64,000 nt of DNA, taken from Vicinamibacterales bacterium (lineage in GTDB: Bacteria > Acidobacteriota > Vicinamibacteria > Vicinamibacterales > UBA8438). The position numbers and the translations under genes were made by a program. The notes beneath the pieces were generated by a model. The model worked only from the letters and a program-made list of their open reading frames with translations. It ran no database searches and was not told the DNA's origin. Positions 14,643 to 61,785 of this stretch are shown here, piece after piece. Where the stretch lies: NCBI GenBank assembly GCA_965221595.1, contig OZ244900.1:2342687-2406686 (forward strand), given 5' to 3'. Within the stretch, counting starts at the first letter, position 1, and each line of letters starts with the position of its first letter.

Positions 14643-17201
14643 CTACTCCGCGCGCAGCGTCGCCAGCGGCCTGCGGCGCAGCACGTCGAGACTCGCCGCC
14701 ACGCCTACGCTGCCCACGACCAGCGCCGTCACCAGGGCGCCGCCGACGTTGGCGAGAAGGGACGGAAACCAGGCGATCTCGAACACCTGGCGGGCCAGCG
14801 CCCACGTCAGGATCAACGCACCGATGGAACCGACGCCGCCGGCAAGCAGACCCAGGACGCCGTACTCCAGGATCAGCATCAGCGTCAGCATCCGCGCGCT
14901 GGCCCCCAGCGTCTTGAACACGGCCGCCTCGTGGAGGCGCTGGAACTTCGTCATCGCCACCGCCCCGACCAGGATCAGGCCGCCGCTGAACAGCGCAATG
15001 CCCCCGACGACGGAGATGGCCAGCGTGACGTAGTCGAGCACGCGCCGCACTGTCTGCAGCACGGTGAGGCCGTCGATTACGGACACGTTCGGATAGCCGG
15101 CCACCAGGTCGCGCTGGAGTTGCGCCCGCGCGGCGCCGTCGGCCGGCCCCTGCATGAACGCGATGTACGTGTGAGGTGCGTTGCCGAACGATCCGGGCCG
15201 GAACAGGAACATGAAGCCGCCGCTGCGGGTATCGTCCCACTGCACCTCCCGCACACTCGTCACGCGCGCGGCAATCTCCCGGCCCAACACGTCGAACCGG
15301 ACCGTATCGCCCAGCTCGATCCCCCGCTCGTCCCGCAAATCCTCCTCGATCGATATCTCCGGTTCCGCGGCCGGCGCAGCGTCCCAGAACCTGCCCGCTA
15401 TGACCCGCTCGTTATCCGCCAGGCCGGCCCGGTAGGTGACCGTGTACTCGCGCCCCAGGCCCGCGCGGCGCGCGCCGCGCGGACTGTCGAACGACAGCCG
15501 GCGTCCGTCGACACCCGTGACGCGCGCCCGCAGCACCGGAATCAATGGCGGCGCCTCGCCCAGGGCGGTTTCGAGAAGCGCGCGCACGCCCTCGGCCTGG
15601 TCCTGCTGGATGTCGATCAGGAACATGTCGGGCGCATCGTCACGCAGCTCCCGGTCGAAGTTGCCGAGCAGGTTGGTCTGCATCGCGCGGACGCCGATGA
15701 TGAAGAAGCTGCCCAATCCGACGGCCAGCAGAATCACGCGCGTCTGATTGCCCGGACGTCCCAGACTCAGGGCGGCATGCCGCAGCGCGAACCAGGGCGT
15801 GCGCTCGAGCGGCGTCACCGCCTTCACGAGGCCGCGCCCGATGAGGTGCAGCGCGGCCGCCACCGCGGCGAACCCGCCGCTCACGTACAGACCGACCTCC
15901 ACCGAGGCCGCCTGCCAGACGGCCACCGCCACGAGGCCGGCGCCCACCAGGCTGATCACCGCGGCCCGCGTCCAGTCGATGCCGGCCGGCGGGCGCACTG
16001 CGTCCCGGCGCAACAGCAGCAGCGGCTTGGCGTGGCGCACCTCCAGCAGCGGCACCAGCGCGAAGAGCACCGAGACGAGCAGGCCGACGGCCGCCCCCTG
16101 CACCATCGCCGATCCGGTCAGCTCCGTCGAGACGGTCGTCAGCCCGGCCGCGGTCGCCGCCTGCGCGGTCAGCGAATCGGGCACGGCCGCCAGCGCCACG
16201 CGCGCCACGCCGATGCCCAGCAGACTCCCGCCCAGTCCCAGCAGACCAATCTGGGTCACGTAGACGGCCAGCACCCGGCCGCCCGTCGCGCCGAGGCACT
16301 TGAGTATCGCCACGCTGCGCAGGCGCTGCTGGACGAAGACGCGGGTCACACTCCAGACCCCGATGCCGCCCAGAATGACGATGACGAAACCGATCAGGCT
16401 CAGGTAGTCCTCGGTCCGTCCCAGATTGCGTTCGATACGGCTCTCCTGCCCGCGATACGAGCGGACCCGGGCCATCTCCTCCTGCAGGTCCTCGCGCAGC
16501 AAGGCCACCAGCGGATCGATGACCGGAGCCTCGACCTGCAGCAGGATCTGGCGGGTGGCGCGGCTGGCGAACCCCAGCACCCCGGTCTCCTCGACTCCCG
16601 CATAGTCGACCAGCACGCGCGGTCCGAAGCTGAACGCCCCCAGGCGCCGGCCCGGCTCCGTGAGGATGGCGCCGCGAATCGTGAACGCGACGTCCCCGAT
16701 CAGGATGTCGTCGCCCACCGCCAGACCGAGCTGCGCGAGCAGCTCGGGTGCAACCAGTGCACCGTGGTCCCGGAGCAGATCGAACGAGTAGGCGCCGCCG
16801 TCGGCCAAGCGGAACCGCCCGTAGAACGGAAAGTCGGCCTGCACGCCGCGCAGCTCGACCACCTTCGTCCGGGGGGCAGCCCCGGCGGCGGCCCGGACCA
16901 TGGTCGTCGTATCCACAATCTCGGTGCGCCGCAGCGGTTCCACGTCCGCCAGCCGCCCGTCGATGATGCGCCGTACGTCGTCGGACCACGGGCGGTCGGT
17001 GCGGATCGAGACATCGCCGGCGAGCAGGGTCCGGGCTTCCGCAGCCAGGGCCACGCGCACATTCTGTATCAGCGAGCGCAGCGCCACGATGGCGGCTACG
17101 CCGACCGCGATGCAGACGAAGAAGAACGCGACGCGTCGCCACGACGACCGCAGCTCCCGGCCCGCCATCCTGAGGATGAACCGCATCGGCCCGCTCAGCA
17201 C
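14643..17201 (-). CDS. ABC transporter permease, duplicated FtsX/MacB-type (YbbP-like)
   Basis: 852 aa with two FtsX-like four-helix modules separated by large periplasmic domains. The start overlaps the stop of the upstream ATPase gene. Confidence 0.85.
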   Translation of the reverse strand: MLSGPMRFILRMAGRELRSSWRRVAFFFVCIAVGVAAIVALRSLIQNVRVALAAEARTLLAGDVSIRTDRPWSDDVRRIIDGRLADVEPLRRTEIVDTTTMVRAAAGAAPRTKVVELRGVQADFPFYGRFRLADGGAYSFDLLRDHGALVAPELLAQLGLAVGDDILIGDVAFTIRGAILTEPGRRLGAFSFGPRVLVDYAGVEETGVLGFASRATRQILLQVEAPVIDPLVALLREDLQEEMARVRSYRGQESRIERNLGRTEDYLSLIGFVIVILGGIGVWSVTRVFVQQRLRSVAILKCLGATGGRVLAVYVTQIGLLGLGGSLLGIGVARVALAAVPDSLTAQAATAAGLTTVSTELTGSAMVQGAAVGLLVSVLFALVPLLEVRHAKPLLLLRRDAVRPPAGIDWTRAAVISLVGAGLVAVAVWQAASVEVGLYVSGGFAAVAAALHLIGRGLVKAVTPLERTPWFALRHAALSLGRPGNQTRVILLAVGLGSFFIIGVRAMQTNLLGNFDRELRDDAPDMFLIDIQQDQAEGVRALLETALGEAPPLIPVLRARVTGVDGRRLSFDSPRGARRAGLGREYTVTYRAGLADNERVIAGRFWDAAPAAEPEISIEEDLRDERGIELGDTVRFDVLGREIAARVTSVREVQWDDTRSGGFMFLFRPGSFGNAPHTYIAFMQGPADGAARAQLQRDLVAGYPNVSVIDGLTVLQTVRRVLDYVTLAISVVGGIALFSGGLILVGAVAMTKFQRLHEAAVFKTLGASARMLTLMLILEYGVLGLLAGGVGSIGALILTWALARQVFEIAWFPSLLANVGGALVTALVVGSVGVAASLDVLRRRPLATLRAE

Positions 17202-42131: not shown

Positions 42132-45100
42132 ATGGCGAAACGAGGCGTTCGCATCGTTTGTCTGCTGTCGGCGTGCGTATTCCTTTCCACCGGCGCTGCG
42201 GCGCAGACGGCCCGCATCGGCGGGAGCGTCGTGGACGAGACCGGCGGCGTGCTGCCCGGCGTGACGGTCGACGCCGCCAGCCCGGCGCTCATCGAGGGCA
42301 GCCGCACCACGTTCACCGACGCGTCCGGGCTGTACACCATCGACGGGCTGCGCCCCGGCACCTACACGATCACGTTCACGCTGCCCGGATTCAACACCTT
42401 CGTCCGCGAAGGGATCGAGCTGACGACCGGGTTCACGGCCAACGTCGACGTGACGATGGGCGTCGGCGCGGTCGAGGAGACGGTGACCGTCTCCGGCGCC
42501 TCCCCCATCATCGACGTCCAGAACGTCGTCCACCAGGAGAACATCTCGCGCGAGACCCTGGACGCCATTCCGACCGGCAAGACCTACTGGGGCTACGCCG
42601 CGCTCACGGTCGGCGCGACCACGGACATCCTCGGCGGCGGCCAGGACGTCGGCGGCAGCGTAGGCGATACGTGGGGCCACGTCCTGGTGCACGGCAGCTC
42701 GAACACCGACGGCGACATCCTGTGGGACGGCATGTCGATCAACGCCTCGGTCACAGCCGGCGGTGGCACGGGCAAGATCTTCTTCATGAACCAGGCTGCC
42801 ATCCAGGAGGTGGTGATGTCGACCGGCGGGATGGACGCCGAGACGTCCACCGGCGGCGTCGGCATGAACGCCATTCCCCGCGAAGGCGCCAACGCGTTCA
42901 GCTACTACGTGAACATCAGCGGCACCAACGAGCACCTGCAGAACCTGAACTGGGACGACGGTCTCGGCCAGCGCGGGATGCAGGAGGAACAGATCAACGG
43001 CATCAAGGACATCTGGGACTTCGGCGTGGGCGTCGGCGGGCCGATCGTGAACGACCGCCTATGGTTCTACACGGCCCATCGCTGGTGGGGCACCGAACGG
43101 TTCGCGCCCCGCAGCTTCAACAACCTGGCGCCGCGCGTGCCGTCCACCGGGTTCGCGGTCGACTACCAGCCCGACTACAACAACCCGACCGTCATCGAGT
43201 CCCGGCAGCGCGACAACTCGCTGCGGCTGACCTGGCAGGCCTCCGAGCGCAACAAGATCACGTTGACGCGCCACCAGCAGACGAGCTGCTTCTGTCAGCA
43301 GTGGGCCGTCTTCGGCCTGGTCGACTACAACGCGGCGGCCGACTACTTCCAGGACCCGGTGTCGCTCAGCCAGGTCAAGTGGACCATGCCGGCCAGCAAC
43401 CGGCTGCTCTTGGAGGCGGGCGTGTCCTACGTGTTCAACACCTCGACCCCCAGTCCGCAGCCCGAAGTGCTGCCGGGCGACATCGGCGTGTTCCTGGTCG
43501 ACCCGCTGATCTTTCTCAACGTGCAGACCTTCTCGCCGAGCACGCCGGCGCTCTACGGCTACGGGCACAACTTCCCGAACCTGACGGGACACGGCGCGGT
43601 GTCGTACGTCACCGGCTCGCACACGTTCAAGGCCGGCGTCGAGTACTCCCACTACTGGGAGGAGCACGAGTACGCCACGATCTACAACAACCTGCAGTAC
43701 GGCTTCGTCACGCCGGGCGTCTCCTTCCGGGTGCGCCAGTACGGCACGCCGCGCAACTCGTTCATGCAGGCCGACGACATCGGCATCTTCGCCCAGGACC
43801 AGTGGACGATCGACCGCCTGACCCTCAACCTCGGCGTGCGCTACGACTCCATCAACGGCTACGTGCCGGCGCAGACGCACCCGACCAGCCGCTTCGTGCA
43901 GTCGTTCTCCACCCCGCTCATCGAGAACAAGCCGGACTGGCGCGACATCAACCCGCGGCTGGGCGTCGCCTACGACCTGTTCGGCGATGGCCGCACGGCA
44001 CTCAAGGCGAACCTGGGCCGCTACGTCTTCGCGGTCGGCACGTCGATTGCCCAGATCCACAACCCGATGGAGGCGATCCAGATCTTCTCGGACCGGACCT
44101 GGAACGACAATACGTTCGAGGCGTTCGGGCTGCCGCCCGGCAACGGCGACCTCAACCCCGACTGCGACTTCGACAACTTCGCGGCCAACGGCGAGTGCGG
44201 CGCCATCATCAACCCGGAGTTCGGCACGCCCATCATCACGAGCCGCTTCGATGACGACGTGCTGGAAGGCTGGGGCAAGCGCAAGTACAACTGGCAGTTC
44301 TCGGTCGGCATCCAGCACGAGATCACCGAGGGCTGGTCGATCGACGTCGGCTACTTCCGGCGCGCGAACGGCAACTTCGTCGTGCTCGACAACCTGAACG
44401 TCGGCCCCGCGGACTTCGACGAGTACAGCATCACGGCGCCTGTCGATCCGAACCTGGGGCCGGTCAGCGGTCAGGTGCTCTCGGGGCTGTACACGATCAC
44501 CCCGGAGGCGCAGGCCCGCGGCACCAACAACGTGTTCTACTTCGCCGACCGGTACGGCGACATGAGCGAGACGTTCAACGGCATCGACGTCGCGTTCAAC
44601 GGCCGTCTGGAGAACGGCGTCACGCTCACCGGCGGCATGGCCACCGGGGCGATGAGCTTCAACGAGTGCTTCGTCGTCGACTCGCCCCAGCAGCTGCGGC
44701 CGGGCTACTGCGACGTCTCGCCGTCGTGGTGGAAGTACGGCACCCAGTTCAAGCTGAACGGCTCGGTGCCGCTGCCGTACGACACCGAGGTGGCCTTCGT
44801 GTTTCAGAACCTGCCCGGGCTGCAGCGGCGGTCGATCTACAACGCCGGCGCCGACCCCGCCGAGCGGGCGGCGATCGAGGCGCAGCTGGGCCGACCGATG
44901 GCCGTTCCGTCCGAGGAGATCGCGCTGTTCCCGTCCGGCGTCGGCTTCTACGAAGATCAGCCGTCGTCGTCGCTGCCCTACAACGGCTTCGTCTTCCTCG
45001 AGAACAGCACGGAGTTCGAGCCGCGTCTGACGCAGCTCGACCTGCGCTTCACGAAGATCGTCAACTTCGGCGGCGCGCGGGTGCGCGCCTGGTTTGATGT

Positions 45101-45230
45101 CTACAACCTCTTCAACGCCAACGACGCGACCAACATCGTGGCCAACTACGTGTCCGGCGGCGCCTTCCCCGCCATCTCGGACATCATGAACGGCCGCCTG
45201 TTCCGCTTCGGCGGCCAGTTCGACTGGTAG
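42132..45230 (+). CDS. TonB-dependent receptor with N-terminal carboxypeptidase-regulatory-like domain
   Basis: Signal peptide, then GSVVDETGGVLPGVTVDA......T.TDASGLYTIDGLRPGTYTITFTLPGF (CarboxypepD_reg). Long beta-barrel with a C-terminal aromatic residue (...FGGQFDW). Confidence 0.85.
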   Translation: MAKRGVRIVCLLSACVFLSTGAAAQTARIGGSVVDETGGVLPGVTVDAASPALIEGSRTTFTDASGLYTIDGLRPGTYTITFTLPGFNTFVREGIELTTGFTANVDVTMGVGAVEETVTVSGASPIIDVQNVVHQENISRETLDAIPTGKTYWGYAALTVGATTDILGGGQDVGGSVGDTWGHVLVHGSSNTDGDILWDGMSINASVTAGGGTGKIFFMNQAAIQEVVMSTGGMDAETSTGGVGMNAIPREGANAFSYYVNISGTNEHLQNLNWDDGLGQRGMQEEQINGIKDIWDFGVGVGGPIVNDRLWFYTAHRWWGTERFAPRSFNNLAPRVPSTGFAVDYQPDYNNPTVIESRQRDNSLRLTWQASERNKITLTRHQQTSCFCQQWAVFGLVDYNAAADYFQDPVSLSQVKWTMPASNRLLLEAGVSYVFNTSTPSPQPEVLPGDIGVFLVDPLIFLNVQTFSPSTPALYGYGHNFPNLTGHGAVSYVTGSHTFKAGVEYSHYWEEHEYATIYNNLQYGFVTPGVSFRVRQYGTPRNSFMQADDIGIFAQDQWTIDRLTLNLGVRYDSINGYVPAQTHPTSRFVQSFSTPLIENKPDWRDINPRLGVAYDLFGDGRTALKANLGRYVFAVGTSIAQIHNPMEAIQIFSDRTWNDNTFEAFGLPPGNGDLNPDCDFDNFAANGECGAIINPEFGTPIITSRFDDDVLEGWGKRKYNWQFSVGIQHEITEGWSIDVGYFRRANGNFVVLDNLNVGPADFDEYSITAPVDPNLGPVSGQVLSGLYTITPEAQARGTNNVFYFADRYGDMSETFNGIDVAFNGRLENGVTLTGGMATGAMSFNECFVVDSPQQLRPGYCDVSPSWWKYGTQFKLNGSVPLPYDTEVAFVFQNLPGLQRRSIYNAGADPAERAAIEAQLGRPMAVPSEEIALFPSGVGFYEDQPSSSLPYNGFVFLENSTEFEPRLTQLDLRFTKIVNFGGARVRAWFDVYNLFNANDATNIVANYVSGGAFPAISDIMNGRLFRFGGQFDW

Positions 45231-45238
45231 CATCCGGC

Positions 45239-45273
45239 CGGGAGTCCGCGCCCGCGCGCGGCGCGGACTCCCG
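45239..45273 (+). terminator. 13-bp GC hairpin directly after the receptor gene stop (intrinsic-terminator-like, no U tract)
   Basis: CGGGAGTCCGCGC (45239-45251) pairs with GCGCGGACTCCCG (45261-45273). Confidence 0.45.
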
Positions 45274-45354: not shown

Positions 45355-48300
45355 ATGGCACGCGACGACAGCGTCCTGCCGGCCGGCCATCGGTTCTCGC
45401 ACTACCGCGTTCAGCGGGTCCTTGGACGCGGCGGCTTCGGCGTCACCTACCTCGCGATCGACGAGCGCGGGGGCCGGCAGGTGGCGGTCAAGGAGTTCTT
45501 TCCCGGCGAGTGCGCCGTACGCCGGGACGGGCAGGTGCTCGCGCGGCCCGGTGCCGAGCACGAGAATGCCTTCCGGTGGGGACTGAAGCGTTTTCGCGAC
45601 GAAGGACGCGTCCTGGCTCGCTTCGATCACCCGCACCTCGTGCGGGTGATCGGTGATTTCGAAGCGCACGGCACCGGCTACATCGTGATGGCCTACGTCG
45701 AGGGCAAGACGCTGTCGACGCGACTGGCCCGCGAGGGAACGCTGGACGAAGCGCGGTCGCTCGCCCTCGTCCTGCCCATCGTGGACGGGTTGGAGCAGGT
45801 GCACGCGGCTGACTACCTGCACCGCGACATCAAGCCGGGCAACATCGTGATCGGTGCGGACGGATCGCCGGTGCTGCTCGACTTCGGCGCGGCACGGCGG
45901 GCGCTCGGCGACCGCACGCGCAGTCTCACCGCGATCGTGTCAGACGGCTACGCGCCGATTGAACAGTACGCCCGCGACTCGCGGCAGGGGCCCTGGACCG
46001 ACATCTATGCGCTGGGCGCCGTGCTGTACCGCTGCCTGACCGGTCAGCCGGTACCCGAGGCGCCCGCGCGCGCCACCGCGGACGAACTCGTGCCGTTGGG
46101 GGAGGCAGCGCCCGCGCCGCCGAGCCAGGCCATCCAGGAGGCCGTGCATGCGGCGCTGGCCGTCAACGGCCGCGACCGCCCGCAGTCCCTGGCCGAGTGG
46201 CGGGAGATGTTGTCGGCGTCGCCGGCCGCGCCGGCGAAAGACAACGTCGCGGAGCGTAACGTGGCGGAGCGGGACGCCGGCGGGGCGGCGGCGGACGACG
46301 TGGCGGAGCACGACATCGGCGGAGCGACGGCGCGCGACGTGGTGGAGCGGGACACCGGCGGAGCGACGGCCGGCCCGGCGCCGGAGGCTCGGCGCGAGTA
46401 CGCGGACGATCTCGCGGGGCAGCGGCAACGACTCGTCGACTGGGTGCGACACCAACTCGTCGGCCCCACCGACCCCGACGAGATCCACGGTTCGCCCGTC
46501 GAGCGCTTTCCGATCGGCGTGCTGCACCCCATCAATCCGGACGGCTCGGGCGCGACCGGCGTCGACCCTGCCGAGCCGGAAGTGAACCCCGACAGCCGGG
46601 GTTCCGGAGCCGCGGCGTCGTCGCCGGACGGCGCCGACCTGACAGCCCCGCCGGCCGACGACGAGGACGACGAATCGCACGACGGCGACGAAGGTGGATC
46701 GCGCAGTGAGGTGGCGCGGCCGGTAGGTCGCCGCCGCTACGCGCCACCGTCCTCGGTTGGAGTGTCCTTCTATGTGCGCGGTGAAGCCCAGTTGCGTATC
46801 AGCGCGTCGGCCGCGAGCTATCGACGGGTGACCAACCGAGGCGAATCGGGCCGTTACCAGCGTCAGACGCCGGACAGCGATGCAGTCGGCGCCGGACGAA
46901 CCCCCGACAGCGCTGGCCGCCGTCGGGATGAGCGCGGCGCGGGCACCGCGCCGACCTCTTTCGACGCGGAGGCACGAGCACCCGAGGACGCCGCCCCGGG
47001 CGGCGGCGCGCGCTACCAGCGGACGGCCATCGAATGCGGTCTGCTCTGGCCCTCGGGAGAGGGCGAGACGCCGACCGGCGTCGAGCGGGACGTGCGGCGC
47101 CGGCCGTACCGGGGCGGTGACGCGCTGACCGCCGCCTTCTCGCAGGCGGAGGCGGTCGGGTGGAAGACGCAGCTCGACGTGCGGCGCCGCCCCTACGGAG
47201 ACGGGCACATCCTGACCGTGGTCTTCGCCAACCGGCAGCGCGAAGCGCCCCCCGGCACGGAACGCGCCCACCGCCGCCTGTTCGAGGTCCAACTGGAGTG
47301 CGAGGTCGAGGCCGGGGAGCTAACCGAGTACCCGCGGGTGGACCCCGCCTTGCTCACCGATGAGGAACAAGAGATCGAGCTGCAGCACCGCCACCGACCC
47401 ATCTACGCTATCGGCCACGGCGTGGCCGCGGAGTGGTCGATCGCGGGGCGCCGGCGGCCGCGCATCTGGACCGACTGCATGCCCACGGTCGAAGTGCCGG
47501 TGGTGACCCAGGAAATCCCGGACCTCGACCCGGACCTGCTGGTCCTGCTCGACCTCGCCGAGGCGCCGGCCGGGACGGTCCTCGCCCGCCTGGAAACTTT
47601 CGTGAACCGCTACGGCGAATGGGTGGACGGGCAGCGCGCGTCGGCGGAGAGCTTCGTCGGCGGCGAAGGCGAGGCGGCGCGACGAATCTGCGCACGGATG
47701 GACGCGGCAAGCGAACGGATGCGGGGAGGCGTGGCCCGCTTGCGTCGCAGCGACGAGGCCCTGGAGGCGTTCCGGCTGGCGAACCGCGCGATGTTCGACC
47801 AGATGTGCCAGGACCGCGTGCAGAAGAAGCTGGATTCCTCCTCTGACGAAGGCTTCGACCACCAAGTGAACCGCGTGCGCGAGGAGCGCGATGTCCGCCG
47901 GTATCGTTGGCGTCCGTTCCAGTTGGCGTTCCTGCTGGCCGTCATCGAATCGACGATCGACGAGGCGGATCCTTGCCGGGGCGTGCTCGACCTGATCTGG
48001 TTTCCCGCCGGCGGCGGCAAGACCGAGGCCTATCTCGGGCTGTTCGCCTTCCTCGCGATGTGGCGGCGGCTGCGATACGGCGAGGACGGCGGGGGCGTCG
48101 CGGTGCTCATGCGCTATACGCTGCGGCTGCTCACGCGGCAACAGTTCGAACGGGCGGCGCGCATCGTCTGCGCGCTCGAGTTGCTGCGGCGGCGGGACGA
48201 AGCGAGACTCGGCGTCGAGCCGGTCTCGGTCGGGCTCTGGGTGGGCGGCGCGGCCAGCCCCAACACCCATGAGGAGGCGGCGGCGAAGGTGGCGGACATG

Positions 48301-53251: not shown

Positions 53252-54997
53252 ATGCCCACGCCGAAGCAGCCCGGCCTGTTGGGCCGCGTTCAGCCCGAGC
53301 CCGACCCGCGCGATGCAGGCGCGAGCCTGGACGCCGGGCGGCAACCTGACCGCACAAGCGGCACCGCGGCGGCGGCAGGCGCTACCGACGAGGCGCCCAA
53401 GCGCGGCCGCCTCGTCACGAATCACCTCAACCTGCTCTACCTGCTGGCGGCCGGGCTCTTGCTGCCGCGGAGCGGTTTCGGCACGAAGTACTATCAGGAC
53501 ACGCTCGACGCCTGCCCGGGCTGGATCCCTTTGTTCACGGGCCTGCCGGGCCCCGCCGCCGTCGACCAGGCGACCGCCGAGGCTGCGCATCTCAGGTCGT
53601 GCCAGGTGATCGTCTCGCTGAACGCCTGTGCTGGGCCGGTAATGGTCCCCACAACCGCCGGCGTCGAGGAGCGCCGTTGGCCGGATGAGGCTCGGGACGC
53701 CCCGCTGATCTTCGTCCCCGCGCCGCTCCCGCTCTCGGCCGTCGAATCGATCGTGTTCCGGTCGCAAGAAGACAGGGAGGCCTGCCGGGACCGCGCGCGG
53801 GACGTCGGCAACGTGCCACTCGACGATTTCGAGGTCCGTACCATCAAGCGTTTTTCGTCCGCCGGGGGGCCACCGTGGCCGCCCGCACACATGCCGCCCG
53901 AACGCTCCGCGCCGCTTGCAGCAGCCCAGGCCGCCGGGGGCATGCTGGCCATGCTGTTGAAGCTGGCGCATGAGGACCGAGGCAGAATTCTCGCGGGAAA
54001 CGACTCCCGGGAGCTGGCCGCCTGCCGGGCCGCGTTCGATCCCGCGAACGACCCGCCGCCCGTCTTGGCGGGGACGGTGGCGGCGGCGCTGGCTGACTGG
54101 ATGCGTACGGGTTCCTCCGCCGTGCCCCCGGACGCTGCCCGCCCGGGCATCGACCGCGGCGACGCTCGGCGACTCGTCTGGGGAGCGGTCGACACCCTCG
54201 CGGAGCGGGCCGGCGTGGCTGGGGTGGACGAGGCCAACGCTCTGCTGCTCGAGTACCTCGACCGCGAGTCGAAGGAACTCGATGAGCCGCTGCGGAAACA
54301 CGTCATCGAGCTGCGGGCGACGCTCGATTCCCTGACCGGGCTGGCGGACCTGACCGCGTCGGACCTGTTCGAGCGGTTCAGCACGCCGTTCCCCCGCGCG
54401 ATGTGCCTGCTGTTCCTGCGCCGGACCTGCGCCGAGCTGCTCGAGTTCGAGCACGCAGCACTGACCGCCGAGGACCGGCTGGCCGCTGCGCTGCTGTTCG
54501 GCGCCCGCGCCGGCTGGCTGGCGTTGCCGCTGTCGCTCCGCGGCGGGGCGGCGGCCTCCGCCGCGGTCTCTCACCGCATGGCGGCGCGGAGCCACCGCCT
54601 GGCGGGAACCGGCTTCGAGCTGGGCCCGGCCCCGGCGCGTCCGAAGGCGCTGGCCGAGCTGTTCGCCGGCGAGTGGGGCGCTCCTCAGCGGGATGCTGCA
54701 GTCGAGCTTGCCCGCAGGCAGAAGTGGACCGACTGCCTTCAGACGCGGGTCAAGCTCGGTACGGGGGACTACGTGTTGAAGGTCGGACGCGGCGGGACGG
54801 AAATCATCTTTCCGGGCGAGGCGCGCGCCGTCGAGACCGTCGTGGACCGTTCCCGGTTTGCGACGCGGCTGGCGGCGGACTCCGTCGATCCGAAGCATGA
54901 GAGGGCGGTCAGAGTACTGCTGGCGGGCGGCGGGAGTGCAGCACCGGGCAGGCGCCGGCGCCGCGGCCGCCCGGGGGGGCAGAACCGGGCGGGTTGA
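53252..54997 (+). CDS. Hypothetical protein, 581 aa, no recognisable motif (fourth gene of the candidate defence block)
   Basis: ATG 19 nt after the previous stop, preceded by aaGGAAGtAGGAtg. Non-repetitive sequence with hydrophobic/helical stretches (LVTNHLNLLYLLAAGLLLP, GWIPLF) and a basic Arg-rich tail. Confidence 0.7.
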   Translation: MPTPKQPGLLGRVQPEPDPRDAGASLDAGRQPDRTSGTAAAAGATDEAPKRGRLVTNHLNLLYLLAAGLLLPRSGFGTKYYQDTLDACPGWIPLFTGLPGPAAVDQATAEAAHLRSCQVIVSLNACAGPVMVPTTAGVEERRWPDEARDAPLIFVPAPLPLSAVESIVFRSQEDREACRDRARDVGNVPLDDFEVRTIKRFSSAGGPPWPPAHMPPERSAPLAAAQAAGGMLAMLLKLAHEDRGRILAGNDSRELAACRAAFDPANDPPPVLAGTVAAALADWMRTGSSAVPPDAARPGIDRGDARRLVWGAVDTLAERAGVAGVDEANALLLEYLDRESKELDEPLRKHVIELRATLDSLTGLADLTASDLFERFSTPFPRAMCLLFLRRTCAELLEFEHAALTAEDRLAAALLFGARAGWLALPLSLRGGAAASAAVSHRMAARSHRLAGTGFELGPAPARPKALAELFAGEWGAPQRDAAVELARRQKWTDCLQTRVKLGTGDYVLKVGRGGTEIIFPGEARAVETVVDRSRFATRLAADSVDPKHERAVRVLLAGGGSAAPGRRRRRGRPGGQNRAG

Positions 54998-55208: not shown

Positions 55209-55628
55209 CTACGCGGCGAGGAACCGCAGGATTCCGAACGTCAGCGCCGCCGTGGCCAGGACGGTGCCGACCATCCAGCGGATGAGCCGGGTTTCGAGAG
55301 CGGCGATCTCGGTGCGAACCTCGGCAATCTGCGTCGAGAGTCGCGTGTCGACGGCCGCGATCTCAGTACGAACCGCGGCAATCTGCGTCGAGAGCCGCGT
55401 GTCGACGGCCGCGACCTCGGTGCGGACCTCGGCAATCTGCGCGGAGAGCCGCGTGTCGAGAGCCGCGATCTCGGTGCGGACCTCAGCGAGACCGGCTTTG
55501 AACTGGTCGGAGGTGACGTGGTCGCCCTGCCGGGCGAGCCTGTGCATGGCCGTGGCGATGACTTCGGCCTGGCCACGGTCGATGCCGCCGGCGGTCAGCT
55601 CCTGGGCGACGGAGAGCGTGTCGAGCAT
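55209..55628 (-). CDS. DUF1640-like coiled-coil protein with C-terminal membrane anchor
   Basis: ORF 55209..55730 trimmed to MLDTLSVAQELTAGGIDRGQAEVIATAM (ATG at 55628). Four 18-aa repeats EVRTEIAA(L/V)DTRLS(A/T)QIA, then IRWMVGTVLATAALTFGILRFL. Confidence 0.7.
   Translation of the reverse strand: MLDTLSVAQELTAGGIDRGQAEVIATAMHRLARQGDHVTSDQFKAGLAEVRTEIAALDTRLSAQIAEVRTEVAAVDTRLSTQIAAVRTEIAAVDTRLSTQIAEVRTEIAALETRLIRWMVGTVLATAALTFGILRFLAA
55291..55490. repeat. About 3.7 tandem copies of a 54-nt repeat (in-frame, inside the DUF1640-like CDS)
   Basis: Units begin near 55291, 55345, 55399 and 55453, e.g. gtgtcgacggccgcgatctcagtacgaaccgcggcaatctgcgtcgagagccgc. Confidence 0.8.
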
Positions 55629-55836
55629 GGGGCAACATCCTGCGACCAGGCGGCCGCGCGCGACGGTTGCGGGAGACCACCCCGGTGATCGCAGCGGGCC
55701 AGGAACTGCCCGAATCGCATCAAATGACACTGTAGCATGAGCGCATCAGCGGACGGACAGGGGCGAGGAACACCCCGTTTCCGGGCGGGACGGTCCGGAC
55801 GGGTGACGCGTCTGTCGGGACGCGCGGCAGGGTGTC

Positions 55837-55925
55837 TGGTACCGAGGGTGGGGATCGAACCCACACGGCCCGTCAGGGCCACGGGATTTTAAGTCCCGTG
55901 CGTCTGCCAGTTTCGCCACCTCGGC
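55837..55925 (-). tRNA. tRNA-Leu (anticodon UAA), type II with long variable arm, CCA encoded
   Basis: Reverse complement: GCCGAGG-TG-GCG-AAACTGGCAGA-CGC-A-CGGGA-CTTAAAA-TCCCG-TGGCCCTGACGGGCCGT-GTGGG-TTCGATC-CCCAC-CCTCGGT-ACCA. The cloverleaf folds by hand, and position 1:72 is a G:U pair. Confidence 0.85.
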
Positions 55926-61073: not shown

Positions 61074-61724
61074 CTACCAGCCCGATTCGCCTCGCAGCGG
61101 CACGAAGACGCAGCCGACGCTCTCCTCCTCATCGAAACCGGCCCTGCTGCGACGAACCACTGTCAGCGTCTGCTGGTGCCGGCTGCCGCGCGGCAGCACC
61201 AGTCGCCCCCCGATGGCCAGCTGGTCGAGGAGCGGGGGCGGCGCGGCCGGCGCCCCGGCGGTCACCATGATCCGGTCGAAGCACCCGCCCGGCGCCCCGC
61301 GGCTGCCGTCGCCGGTCGTCACGCGCACGTTGGCGATTCCGAGCCTGGCCAGCGTCGCGCGGGCCCGCACGGCCAGCTCGGGCACCCATTCGAATGTGCG
61401 CACCTCCGCCACGAGCTGCGCCAGCACGGCCGCCTGGTAGCCGGATCCGGTCCCGACCTCCAGCACCCGGTTGCCTGTCGCCGGTTGAAGCGCCGCGGTC
61501 ATGACCGCGACCATGTAGGGCTGCGAGATCGTCTGACCGTAGCCAATCGGCAACGGCCGATCCTCGTACGCCGCCGGCGCCGAGGCTGCCGGCACGAACT
61601 CGTGGCGCGGCACCGCAGCCAGCGCGCGCAGGACGCCGGCGTGCCGCACGCCGCGCGCGCGGATTTGCGTCTCCACCATGCGGCTCCGCTCGGCTGCCCG
61701 GGCGCGCTCCGATTCCGTCGCCAT
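61074..61724 (-). CDS. pcm: Protein-L-isoaspartate O-methyltransferase
   Basis: [50 protein letters not shown]. Confidence 0.9.
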
Positions 61725-61785
61725 GCTGGCGGGGGCCGGCCCCTCCCTCCGCCGATGGTAGCAGCCCGCCTCCCACGGCGCAGTC

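Follow-up and report, generated by a model that had tools for sequence, protein, structure and literature searches.

In a 64-kb stretch of contig OZ244900.1 from a Vicinamibacterales bacterium (the window, to which all coordinates refer), four plus-strand genes at 45355-54997 encode, in order, a kinase-DrmA fusion, a DrmB protein, a minimal superfamily 1 (SF1) ATPase and a 581-aa partner protein. The block represents a genuine and strongly conserved class of operon related to the defence system DISARM, which appears not to have been described. It is probably a reduced copy, decorated with a kinase, within a DISARM-related operon family that is widespread and seemingly without a name. The invariant core of that family consists of DrmA, DrmB (the DUF1998 “canopy” protein), an SF1 ATPase and a protein of ~520-580 aa whose N-terminal domain is predicted to have an ADP-ribosyltransferase (ART) fold. 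Most members add a gene for a NERD-nuclease/SF1-helicase, and no methyltransferase, phospholipase D (PLD) or SNF2 gene is consistently present in the operon. The window copy belongs to an Acidobacteriota branch without the fifth gene and, within that branch, to a Vicinamibacterales subset that carries a kinase on DrmA. A check for an existing named system returned none in PADLOC-DB 2.0.0, NCBIfam 20, Pfam or the literature searched.

Conservation of the operon across genomes

Related operons were collected with alignments of the fourth gene, hereafter gene 4. One such alignment proved too diverse for a locus scan, and a narrower one took its place. A gene-4 scan of one genome per species yielded 38 loci, mostly from Vicinamibacterales and other Acidobacteriota, together with Anaerolineales, Caldilineaceae, Longimicrobiales and Sterolibacterium. 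Searches with tblastn recovered the order DrmA-DrmB-SF1-gene 4 on the same strand in every one of the 35 loci with enough upstream DNA, which span four phyla (Acidobacteriota, Chloroflexota, Gemmatimonadota and one betaproteobacterium). A second scan with more distant gene-4 relatives (~30-38% identical to the query set of the first scan) added 80 metagenome loci with a GC content of 0.43-0.72, which were searched with hidden Markov models (HMMs) built from the genome set. Wherever enough sequence was available, the SF1 gene preceded gene 4 (63/63), as did the genes for DrmB (45/45) and DrmA (40/40). The operon of a further gene-4 relative, P0218 (~27% identical), carries the Pfam labels Helicase_C, MZB, UvrD, none and NERD+AAA_30 in succession.

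In total, DrmA, DrmB, the SF1 ATPase and gene 4 form one unit, and their co-occurrence is essentially absolute, with no exception in more than 100 loci. The operon persists as four genes, with no fifth, in ~34 species-level genomes (40-80% identity), which indicates purifying selection.

Gene 1 and the distribution of its kinase domain

Gene 1 (45355-49965, plus strand) encodes a 1536-aa fusion protein with Pfam matches to Pkinase (3.3e-31) and Helicase_C and a PADLOC match to DrmA (8.1e-196). The Hanks-type Ser/Thr kinase domain occupies aa 17-298 (45403-46248, plus strand) and has intact catalytic residues K46, D158 and D176, contained in the motifs VAVK at aa 43, HRD at 156 and DFG at 176. 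Its best matches in the PADLOC defence library are PD-T4-6 (7.2e-50) and mad6 (3.5e-45). DrmA proper covers aa 357-1536 (46423-49965, plus strand) and comprises an N-terminal accessory region and a superfamily 2 (SF2) DExH helicase core; positions 2-684 of the NCBIfam DrmAS profile align to aa 357-1076, and the PADLOC DrmA model aligns to aa 1079-1514. The helicase motifs are GGGKTEAY at 886 (Walker A GGGKT, 886-890), QDELH at 1086 (DELH, 1087-1090), STAT at 1123, NMISVGVDVDRL at 1308 and QASSRIGR at 1336. Against NCBIfam DISARM_DrmAS the protein scores 850.7 bits (1.9e-255), slightly under the 950-bit equivalog cut-off, and by the NCBI threshold the DrmA part is classed as a DrmA homolog and not as an equivalog. 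An earlier interpretation made from the letters of this DNA (the sequence-only reading) had described gene 1 as a complete Hanks kinase fused to a DrmA-like helicase and had listed motifs for the kinase, DrmA and DrmB; these matches uphold the fusion, and every quoted motif was located in the translations.

The kinase and DrmA are joined by a low-complexity linker (46259-46370, plus strand; Tandem Repeats Finder score 161) containing a 39-nt (13-aa) imperfect tandem repeat in 2.9 copies, translated roughly as “...VAERD.GGA.A.D...”. This repeat may be a flexible, expandable tether.

The sequence-only reading had also treated the kinase as a defining part of the system, a claim that the wider comparison contradicts. 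Among the genome loci, tblastn found the kinase only in the window and in L001, L003, L012, L014 and L015; of the 35 complete genome loci 27 lack it, as do all 80 metagenome loci. The window type of kinase-DrmA fusion is shared by ~20 unnamed protein clusters, which are 62-80% identical to it. The DrmA closest to that of the window, P0275 (84% identity), lacks the kinase and has no separate kinase gene upstream, and on a tree of gene 4 the kinase-bearing loci are interleaved with kinase-less ones. The nearest outside relatives of the kinase domain are ordinary bacterial kinases (52-56% identity over the domain), and it appears to have been recruited from such host-type enzymes. Because a DrmA of 84% identity lacks it, the kinase is best regarded as a lineage-specific accessory found in some Vicinamibacterales loci only, and its absence from most loci implies that phosphorylation signalling is not the core logic of the family.

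One Vicinamibacterales genome holds two paralogous copies of the operon (L016 549-6647 and L017 142-6777, both on OZ251506.1), in which DrmA is extended at its N-terminus by a long region that combines a NERD nuclease domain with an APH-like region and a Pkinase domain. The extension in L017 is ~180 aa longer than that in L016 and contains a stretch missing from the latter. In these copies, the nuclease that is missing as a separate fifth gene seems to return as part of DrmA.

In the closest kinase-less relative, gene 4 (L121 13597-15217) is split by one frameshift near 14663, which marks either a pseudogene or an indel error of a long-read assembly. A conserved open reading frame (ORF) of ~211 aa without a Pfam match lies on the same strand ~0.8 kb upstream of the kinase-less drmA in L002 (1527-2162) and seven other Vicinamibacterales loci, and the equivalent 213-aa gene of L121 overlaps the drmA start. 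This ORF may be an extra component in that Vicinamibacterales sub-lineage.

The fifth gene

Of the metagenome loci, 68 have sequence downstream of gene 4, and in 60 of these a fifth gene follows it, as one also does in the Sterolibacterium locus (examples are L040 9815-11380, L099 3424-4995 and L034 9262-10866). It begins 0-16 nt downstream of gene 4 and encodes ~525 aa, in which an intact NERD domain of the PD-(D/E)xK type with conserved ExD...ExK is fused to an SF1 helicase with a Walker A motif and DEGQD. Its domains are matched by NERD and AAA_30, and by RTasNERD-Hel (1.7e-39), the PADLOC model of a NERD-helicase associated with defence reverse transcriptases. The gene is absent from the window and from the Acidobacteriota, Chloroflexota and Gemmatimonadota loci. 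The usual form of the operon therefore has five genes, and the window copy is a reduced form.

DrmB and the minimal SF1 ATPase

Gene 2 (49955-51817, plus strand) starts at the ATG at 49955, overlapping gene 1 by 11 nt, and encodes a 620-aa DrmB with OB-CON-DUF1998/MZB architecture. It scores 301.4 bits against NCBIfam DrmB_fam, over the 240-bit cut-off and with coverage of aa 8-599, and also matches Pfam MZB (1e-7) and PADLOC DrmB (5e-54). The motifs HTLAHLL at 473 and CHAC at 575 are present, as is a C-terminal Cys cluster (C553, C559, C575, C578 and C586). Gene 2 is followed by an apparently non-coding gap of 260 nt (51818-52077; in-frame GC content at third codon positions, GC3, 0.59), which a scan with Rfam assigned to no family. 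It is possible that this gap holds an internal promoter or regulatory element; in relatives the space between drmB and gene 3 measures ~45-200 nt.

Gene 3 (52078-53232, plus strand) encodes a minimal UvrD/PcrA-like SF1 ATPase of 384 aa. Its start is most likely the ATG at 52078, since GC3 is 0.88 downstream of it and 0.59 upstream, conservation in relatives begins at that Met, and the database protein P0389 is likewise 384 aa long; starts at 51853 or 51956 were ruled out by GC3 and conservation. The SF1 motifs GTGKT (aa 37), DEGQD (138) and KGLEFD (317) are present. An AlphaFold2 model (predicted local distance difference test, pLDDT, 82) matched PcrA, UvrD, Rep, the SLFN11 helicase domain and HelD in Foldseek at E-values of 1e-13 to 1e-12. 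The HMM matches (UvrD_C_2, AAA_19 and GajB) are all weak; that to GajB is partial, at best 4.4e-10 over ~40 residues, and the structure is a generic UvrD/PcrA core. At 384 aa the protein is a motor core only, without the large 1B/2B accessory domains. Neither gene 3 nor gene 4 matched a DrmD or DrmE model of PADLOC or NCBIfam at E <= 0.01.

These results bear out two further statements of the sequence-only reading, namely that gene 2 is a DrmB overlapping gene 1 by 11 nt and that gene 3 encodes a minimal SF1 ATPase of the UvrD type. The resemblance to DrmA and DrmB, which it had proposed to check with HMMs, holds at that level (PADLOC, NCBIfam and Pfam MZB).

Gene 4

Gene 4 (53252-54997, plus strand) encodes the conserved 581-aa partner protein. 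The full-length protein matched nothing in Pfam, PADLOC or NCBIfam, and three segments searched separately against Pfam gave nothing even at E <= 10, DarT (DUF4433) included. It has at least 431 close homologs, and a profile search returned 586 representatives of 50%-identity clusters. An AlphaFold model built on 60 homologs (pLDDT 80.8, predicted template modelling score 0.81) suggests three domains, the limits of which were read from the secondary structure of the model, as Foldseek supplies no query coordinates. The sequence-only reading had found no recognisable motif in gene 4, which stands insofar as the protein belongs to no sequence family; a featureless protein it is not, given the ART-like fold in the model.

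The N-terminal alpha/beta domain (~aa 50-215; 53399-53896, plus strand) has, in this model, a DarT/Tpt1-like ART fold, with resemblance to DarT, Tpt1 and 2CompART. The top six Foldseek matches in the Protein Data Bank (PDB) are all DarT structures of Thermus or M. tuberculosis, with E-values between 1.8e-5 and 8e-4, a probability of 1.0 and target-normalised template modelling (TM) scores of 0.42-0.54; the best is Thermus 7omw (E 1.8e-5). The next match is Tpt1 (7yw4, E 7e-3, TM 0.63), and Thermosipho DarTG and E. coli DarT1 were also found, while the viral structures gave weak matches only, to uncharacterised proteins. At the sequence level, Pfam 2CompART gave sub-threshold to marginal matches in 14 of 82 diverse gene-4 family members (best E 1.4e-5); when ten divergent members were used to map it, one marginal match (E 0.09) fell at aa 131-164 of the member concerned, within the N-terminal domain. 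Conservation was scored over members only 23-69% identical, and the near-invariant residues are T56, N57, N60, G68, K79, Y80, Y81, D83, E110 and N187, of which D83 is invariant. The conserved polar residues of the protein concentrate in the N-terminal domain. The spacing of T56 and N60 is that of T15 and N19 of DarT, which hold the adenosine ribose of NAD+ (PMC9967889).

The all-helical middle domain (~aa 223-470; 53918-54661, plus strand) has a weak likeness to ADP-ribosylhydrolases of the ARH3/DraG type, with Foldseek matches to ARH3 at E 0.025-0.1 and target-normalised TM scores of 0.3-0.38. A small C-terminal domain (54680-54925, plus strand) is beta-rich by the secondary structure of the model and has W492, T498, G505 and G522 conserved.

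Locus layout and genomic context

The four genes are co-directional by ORF listing and frame-specific GC3. None of the four ORFs is interrupted; their GC3 (0.84-0.88) is of the coding type, and the catalytic motifs are complete. Upstream, the block is bounded by a hairpin (45239-45273, plus strand) directly 3' of the stop of an outer-membrane beta-barrel gene (42132-45230). The hairpin has a 14-bp GC-rich stem (dG -35.4 kcal/mol, z -3.6 vs shuffles); it has no T-tract and was therefore not listed by a consensus terminator scan, and the consensus promoter and terminator scan as a whole returned nothing useful in this 70% GC DNA. Downstream, a tRNA-Leu(taa) (55837-55925, minus strand; found by ARAGORN, Rfam tRNA 55.3 bits) serves as a landmark and is a possible integration site. 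Between it and gene 4 lies a small coiled-coil ORF (55209-55745, minus strand; Pfam CCDC90-like), which holds a 54-nt tandem repeat in 3.7 copies (55284-55484).

The remaining window genes scanned are housekeeping genes, e.g. those for RNase R, PEPCK, GatB, IspH, CstA and FG-GAP/ASPIC proteins. Among the ORFs scanned across the window there was no match to DNA methyltransferase, PLD, SNF2, DrmE or other defence models; the sole methyltransferase is a protein-isoaspartate enzyme (PCMT, 61077-61784) of protein repair. GC content is ~0.70 in the block and its flanks alike (~70% for the whole window) and gives no compositional sign of recent transfer. The sequence-only reading had pointed to the hairpin, which is real, and to the lack of a methyltransferase, PLD or SNF2 gene, which the scanned ORFs confirm. 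Its description of four co-directional, tightly packed genes is right as to direction, and the 260-nt gap after drmB speaks against tight packing throughout.

The surroundings of the related operons are mixed, with some loci resembling defence islands and others, including the window, resembling stable chromosomal residence. In ~15 Vicinamibacterales species, ligA, which encodes the NAD-dependent DNA ligase, lies downstream of the operon in conserved synteny (L002 12811-15669; L121 16017 onward). In view of the NAD-linked gene-4 fold this neighbourhood is intriguing; it could equally reflect a coincidental insertion near an essential gene. A second Acidobacteriota group has lptD upstream in conserved synteny; other loci have different surroundings. 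Among the genes that flank the metagenome loci are those for type I restriction-modification (R-M), BrxL, SNF2 (DrmD/BrxH-like), WYL/WCX regulators, DEDDh exonucleases, integrases and a transposase. These flanks, the duplicate NERD-kinase copies and the intact cassette in distant phyla are consistent with defence. Across the more than 100 related operons, no methyltransferase, PLD, SNF2 or DrmE gene was consistently linked.

A same-strand ORF of ~216 aa abuts the drmA start in L050 (1303-1950); counting three further ORFs of this kind, the feature occurs in a total of three metagenome loci. DEDDh/RNase_T (PDC-S48) models match four flank proteins, which are probably the products of these ORFs, an arrangement that recalls MrfB beside MrfA. 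The metagenome flanks also contain one strong ADP-ribosylglycohydrolase (PF03747, 6e-84) and one ARPP-1 domain match; the former might reverse the action of an ART in trans.

Comparison with described systems

PADLOC defines DISARM type I by DrmA, DrmB, DrmC, DrmD and DrmMI, and the block would fit neither its type I nor its type II definition (PMC9252829). As only 2/5 of the type I components are present, the block was not filed as DISARM. It shares with DISARM a DrmA-type SF2 helicase with a long N-terminal region and a separate, adjacent and translationally coupled DrmB. In DISARM these are joined by DrmC and by either DrmD and DrmMI (N6-adenine; class I) or DrmE and DrmMII (C5-cytosine; class II), whereas methyltransferase, PLD nuclease DrmC, DrmD (SNF2) and DrmE are all absent from the block, and no match to DrmC or PLD was found for the four proteins or their neighbours. 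Its obligatory partners are instead the minimal UvrD-like ATPase and the ART-fold protein, usually followed by the NERD-helicase, and its DrmA carries a kinase.

Among YprA helicases it is the DISARM branch, in contrast to the repair branch, that typically has helicase and DUF1998 as separate proteins (Bell et al. 2025, bioRxiv 10.1101/2025.09.15.676423). The same study reclassified YprA-family systems into ARMADA, BRIGADE and TALON and noted “many uncharacterized DISARM-like classes”. Its text does not mention a kinase, and ADP-ribosyl, DarT, UvrD, kinase and DISARM-like are not found in its supplement. The nearest precedent for a YprA-family helicase with an obligatory UvrD/GajB-like SF1 partner is ARMADA type II, which consists of a BrxHII-like ArmA, a PglX-like methylase ArmB, a YprA-like helicase ArmC and a GajB-like UvrD helicase ArmD (Bell et al. 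2025). However, the ARMADA type II helicase is unsplit, has a C-terminal Vsr nuclease and belongs to a Druantia-like clade, whereas that of the block is split into DrmA and DrmB. The block lacks both the PglX-like methylase and the SNF2 helicase, and its four proteins gave no match to Vsr, SNF2 or PglX in Pfam, PADLOC or NCBIfam; ARMADA in turn has no ART-fold protein. ArmD has a RelE-like N-terminus, for which the 384-aa gene 3 has no room.

Gene 4 invites comparison with DarTG, as its N-terminal domain best matches DarT structures, the T-x3-N ribose-binding motif at beta1/alpha1 is kept, and a putative ADP-ribosylhydrolase-like helical domain is found in the same polypeptide. Yet gene 4 has no DarT Pfam match, the His13 and catalytic-Glu positions are not conserved, and it is ~2.5 times larger and lies inside a helicase operon, whereas DarTG is a two-gene toxin-antitoxin pair. 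No gene for a DarG macrodomain or NADAR antitoxin is adjacent to gene 4, and the sole candidate for such a part is the helical domain of gene 4 itself, with its weak likeness to ARH3. With kinase defences (PD-T4-6, Stk2, MADS MAD6 and BREX type 2 PglW) the block shares a Hanks kinase with intact catalytic residues, but that of the block is fused to the N-terminus of DrmA as a domain and is dispensable at family level. MrfA/MrfB (YprA/YprB) have the helicase superfamily and the DUF1998/MZB zinc domain in common with it; in MrfA, however, DUF1998 is fused to the helicase and the partner is a DEDDh exonuclease, and MrfAB has no SF1, ART-fold or NERD partner.

Literature searches linking DrmA, DrmB or DUF1998 to a kinase, UvrD, ADP-ribosyl or NERD returned only general reviews and Bell et al. 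2025, with incomplete coverage, and nothing relevant was found on 2CompART. The abbreviation STK in a figure of the CoCoNuT paper was considered and set aside, as it belongs to the TerY-P triad and is not a DrmA fusion.

Discussion

A role of this operon family against mobile elements appears likely. By analogy with DISARM, DrmAB would act as an ATP-driven translocase that loads on single-stranded DNA (ssDNA) and as a sensor of invading or aberrant DNA, with the SF1 ATPase and the ART-fold protein as its obligatory partner module. The ART-fold domain may bind NAD+ or ADP-ribose, and it would either ADP-ribosylate nucleic acid or a DNA end, as DarT and Tpt1 do, or serve as a nucleotide-binding switch; an ADP-ribosylation effector role is what we infer from its modelled fold. 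In the five-gene systems, DNA cleavage would come from the NERD-helicase, and in the window variant the kinase might add a further layer of regulation or effector action by phosphorylating itself or proteins of the phage or the host. Discrimination of self from non-self would be independent of any methylase encoded by the operon. A more specific and tentative version, which we hold to be rather improbable as it stands, is that the ART-fold protein is the true effector, delivered by DrmAB and the SF1 ATPase to foreign ssDNA or DNA ends and ADP-ribosylating them from NAD+ via a non-canonical site (T56, N57, N60, K79, D83, E110 and N187). Methylation-based discrimination and nuclease attack would thereby be replaced, with the Vicinamibacterales kinase adding a phosphorylation output.

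Several observations weigh against these proposals. Thermus DarT has the catalytic residues R51 and E160 and the NAD-binding residues H13, T15, N19 and Y71 (PMC9967889); across the gene-4 family, K, E, R or T occupies the site predicted for the catalytic Glu of an ART (E165), and Leu or Phe that of His13. Transferase activity is therefore doubtful, and we think it rather unlikely that gene 4 is an active ADP-ribosyltransferase. The window gene 4 itself has no 2CompART match, family profiles searched against PDB sequences recovered only designed helical proteins and no DarT chain, and hhalign of the family alignment against E. coli KptA gave a probability of 0.3. The middle domain, suggestive of an ADP-ribosylhydrolase in the model, is a weak lead. 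Without the NERD gene the window variant has no evident nuclease, and the ligA and lptD synteny together with the housekeeping neighbours in the window fits stable vertical inheritance better than a mobile defence island.

This last point bears on the main rival explanation, that the operon is a chromosomal module of DNA repair or damage tolerance analogous to MrfA/MrfB. YprA-family helicases do include repair enzymes (PMC7797055; Bell et al. 2025), the synteny with the NAD-dependent DNA ligase is stable across ~15 Vicinamibacterales species, the window surroundings are housekeeping genes, DrmAB is accompanied by a UvrD-like ATPase and a protein of NAD-linked fold, and a few metagenome loci have an apparent MrfB-like DEDDh exonuclease directly upstream. 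Set against this are the split of DrmA and DrmB, a hallmark of the DISARM branch (Bell et al. 2025), the R-M, BREX-type, WYL and integrase genes that flank the operon elsewhere, the shuffling of kinase and NERD domains at the DrmA N-terminus with duplicate copies in one genome, and a patchy, cross-phylum distribution of a conserved cassette, and we consider a repair role unlikely. Slightly less credit still is given to a kinase-centred, modification-independent derivative of DISARM, in which sensing by DrmAB would lead through phosphorylation to signalling or abortive infection. The complete set of kinase catalytic motifs, the matches to the defence models PD-T4-6 (7e-50) and MAD6, the retention of the fusion in ~20 clusters and the related sub-lineage with NERD and kinase fused at the same position of DrmA all speak for it. 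But the kinase is absent from all of the metagenome loci, most complete genome loci and the closest DrmA, the loci that bear it are scattered on the gene-4 tree, and four-gene operons that lack both the kinase and the fifth gene are common; the core, if it works, therefore works without a kinase. Such a model is unlikely as the logic of the family and could be relevant for the kinase-bearing sub-lineage.

Two further explanations concern the gene content of the window copy. It might be a decaying or incomplete system, a non-functional remnant of four genes left by loss of the NERD-helicase, given that the fifth gene is so frequent in the metagenome loci and absent here, and that gene 4 of the close relative L121 is frameshifted, possibly through an error-prone long-read assembly. 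The intact window ORFs with their coding-type GC3 and catalytic motifs, and the retention of the four-gene form across species, make this highly improbable. That the block is a canonical DISARM with its methyltransferase and nuclease encoded elsewhere in the genome is scarcely credible: although DrmA lies near the DrmAS equivalog cut-off and DrmB exceeds its own, none of the missing components (methyltransferase, PLD, SNF2 or DrmE) is found among the scanned window ORFs or conserved beside the related operons, and two other partner genes are conserved instead.

The preferred reading, a reduced and kinase-decorated member of a DISARM-related family, would have several consequences. As the family keeps only the DrmAB core and swaps all other components, it offers a natural experiment on what DrmAB does alone. 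The kinase or NERD-kinase fused to DrmA in lineages without a NERD-helicase gene points to modular effector swapping on one scaffold, and more than 580 representative sequences of gene 4 are at present unannotated. If the ART-fold protein is an enzyme, the family would join DNA sensing by a helicase, as in DISARM, to NAD+-dependent modification of nucleic acid, as in DarTG, two activities hitherto described separately.

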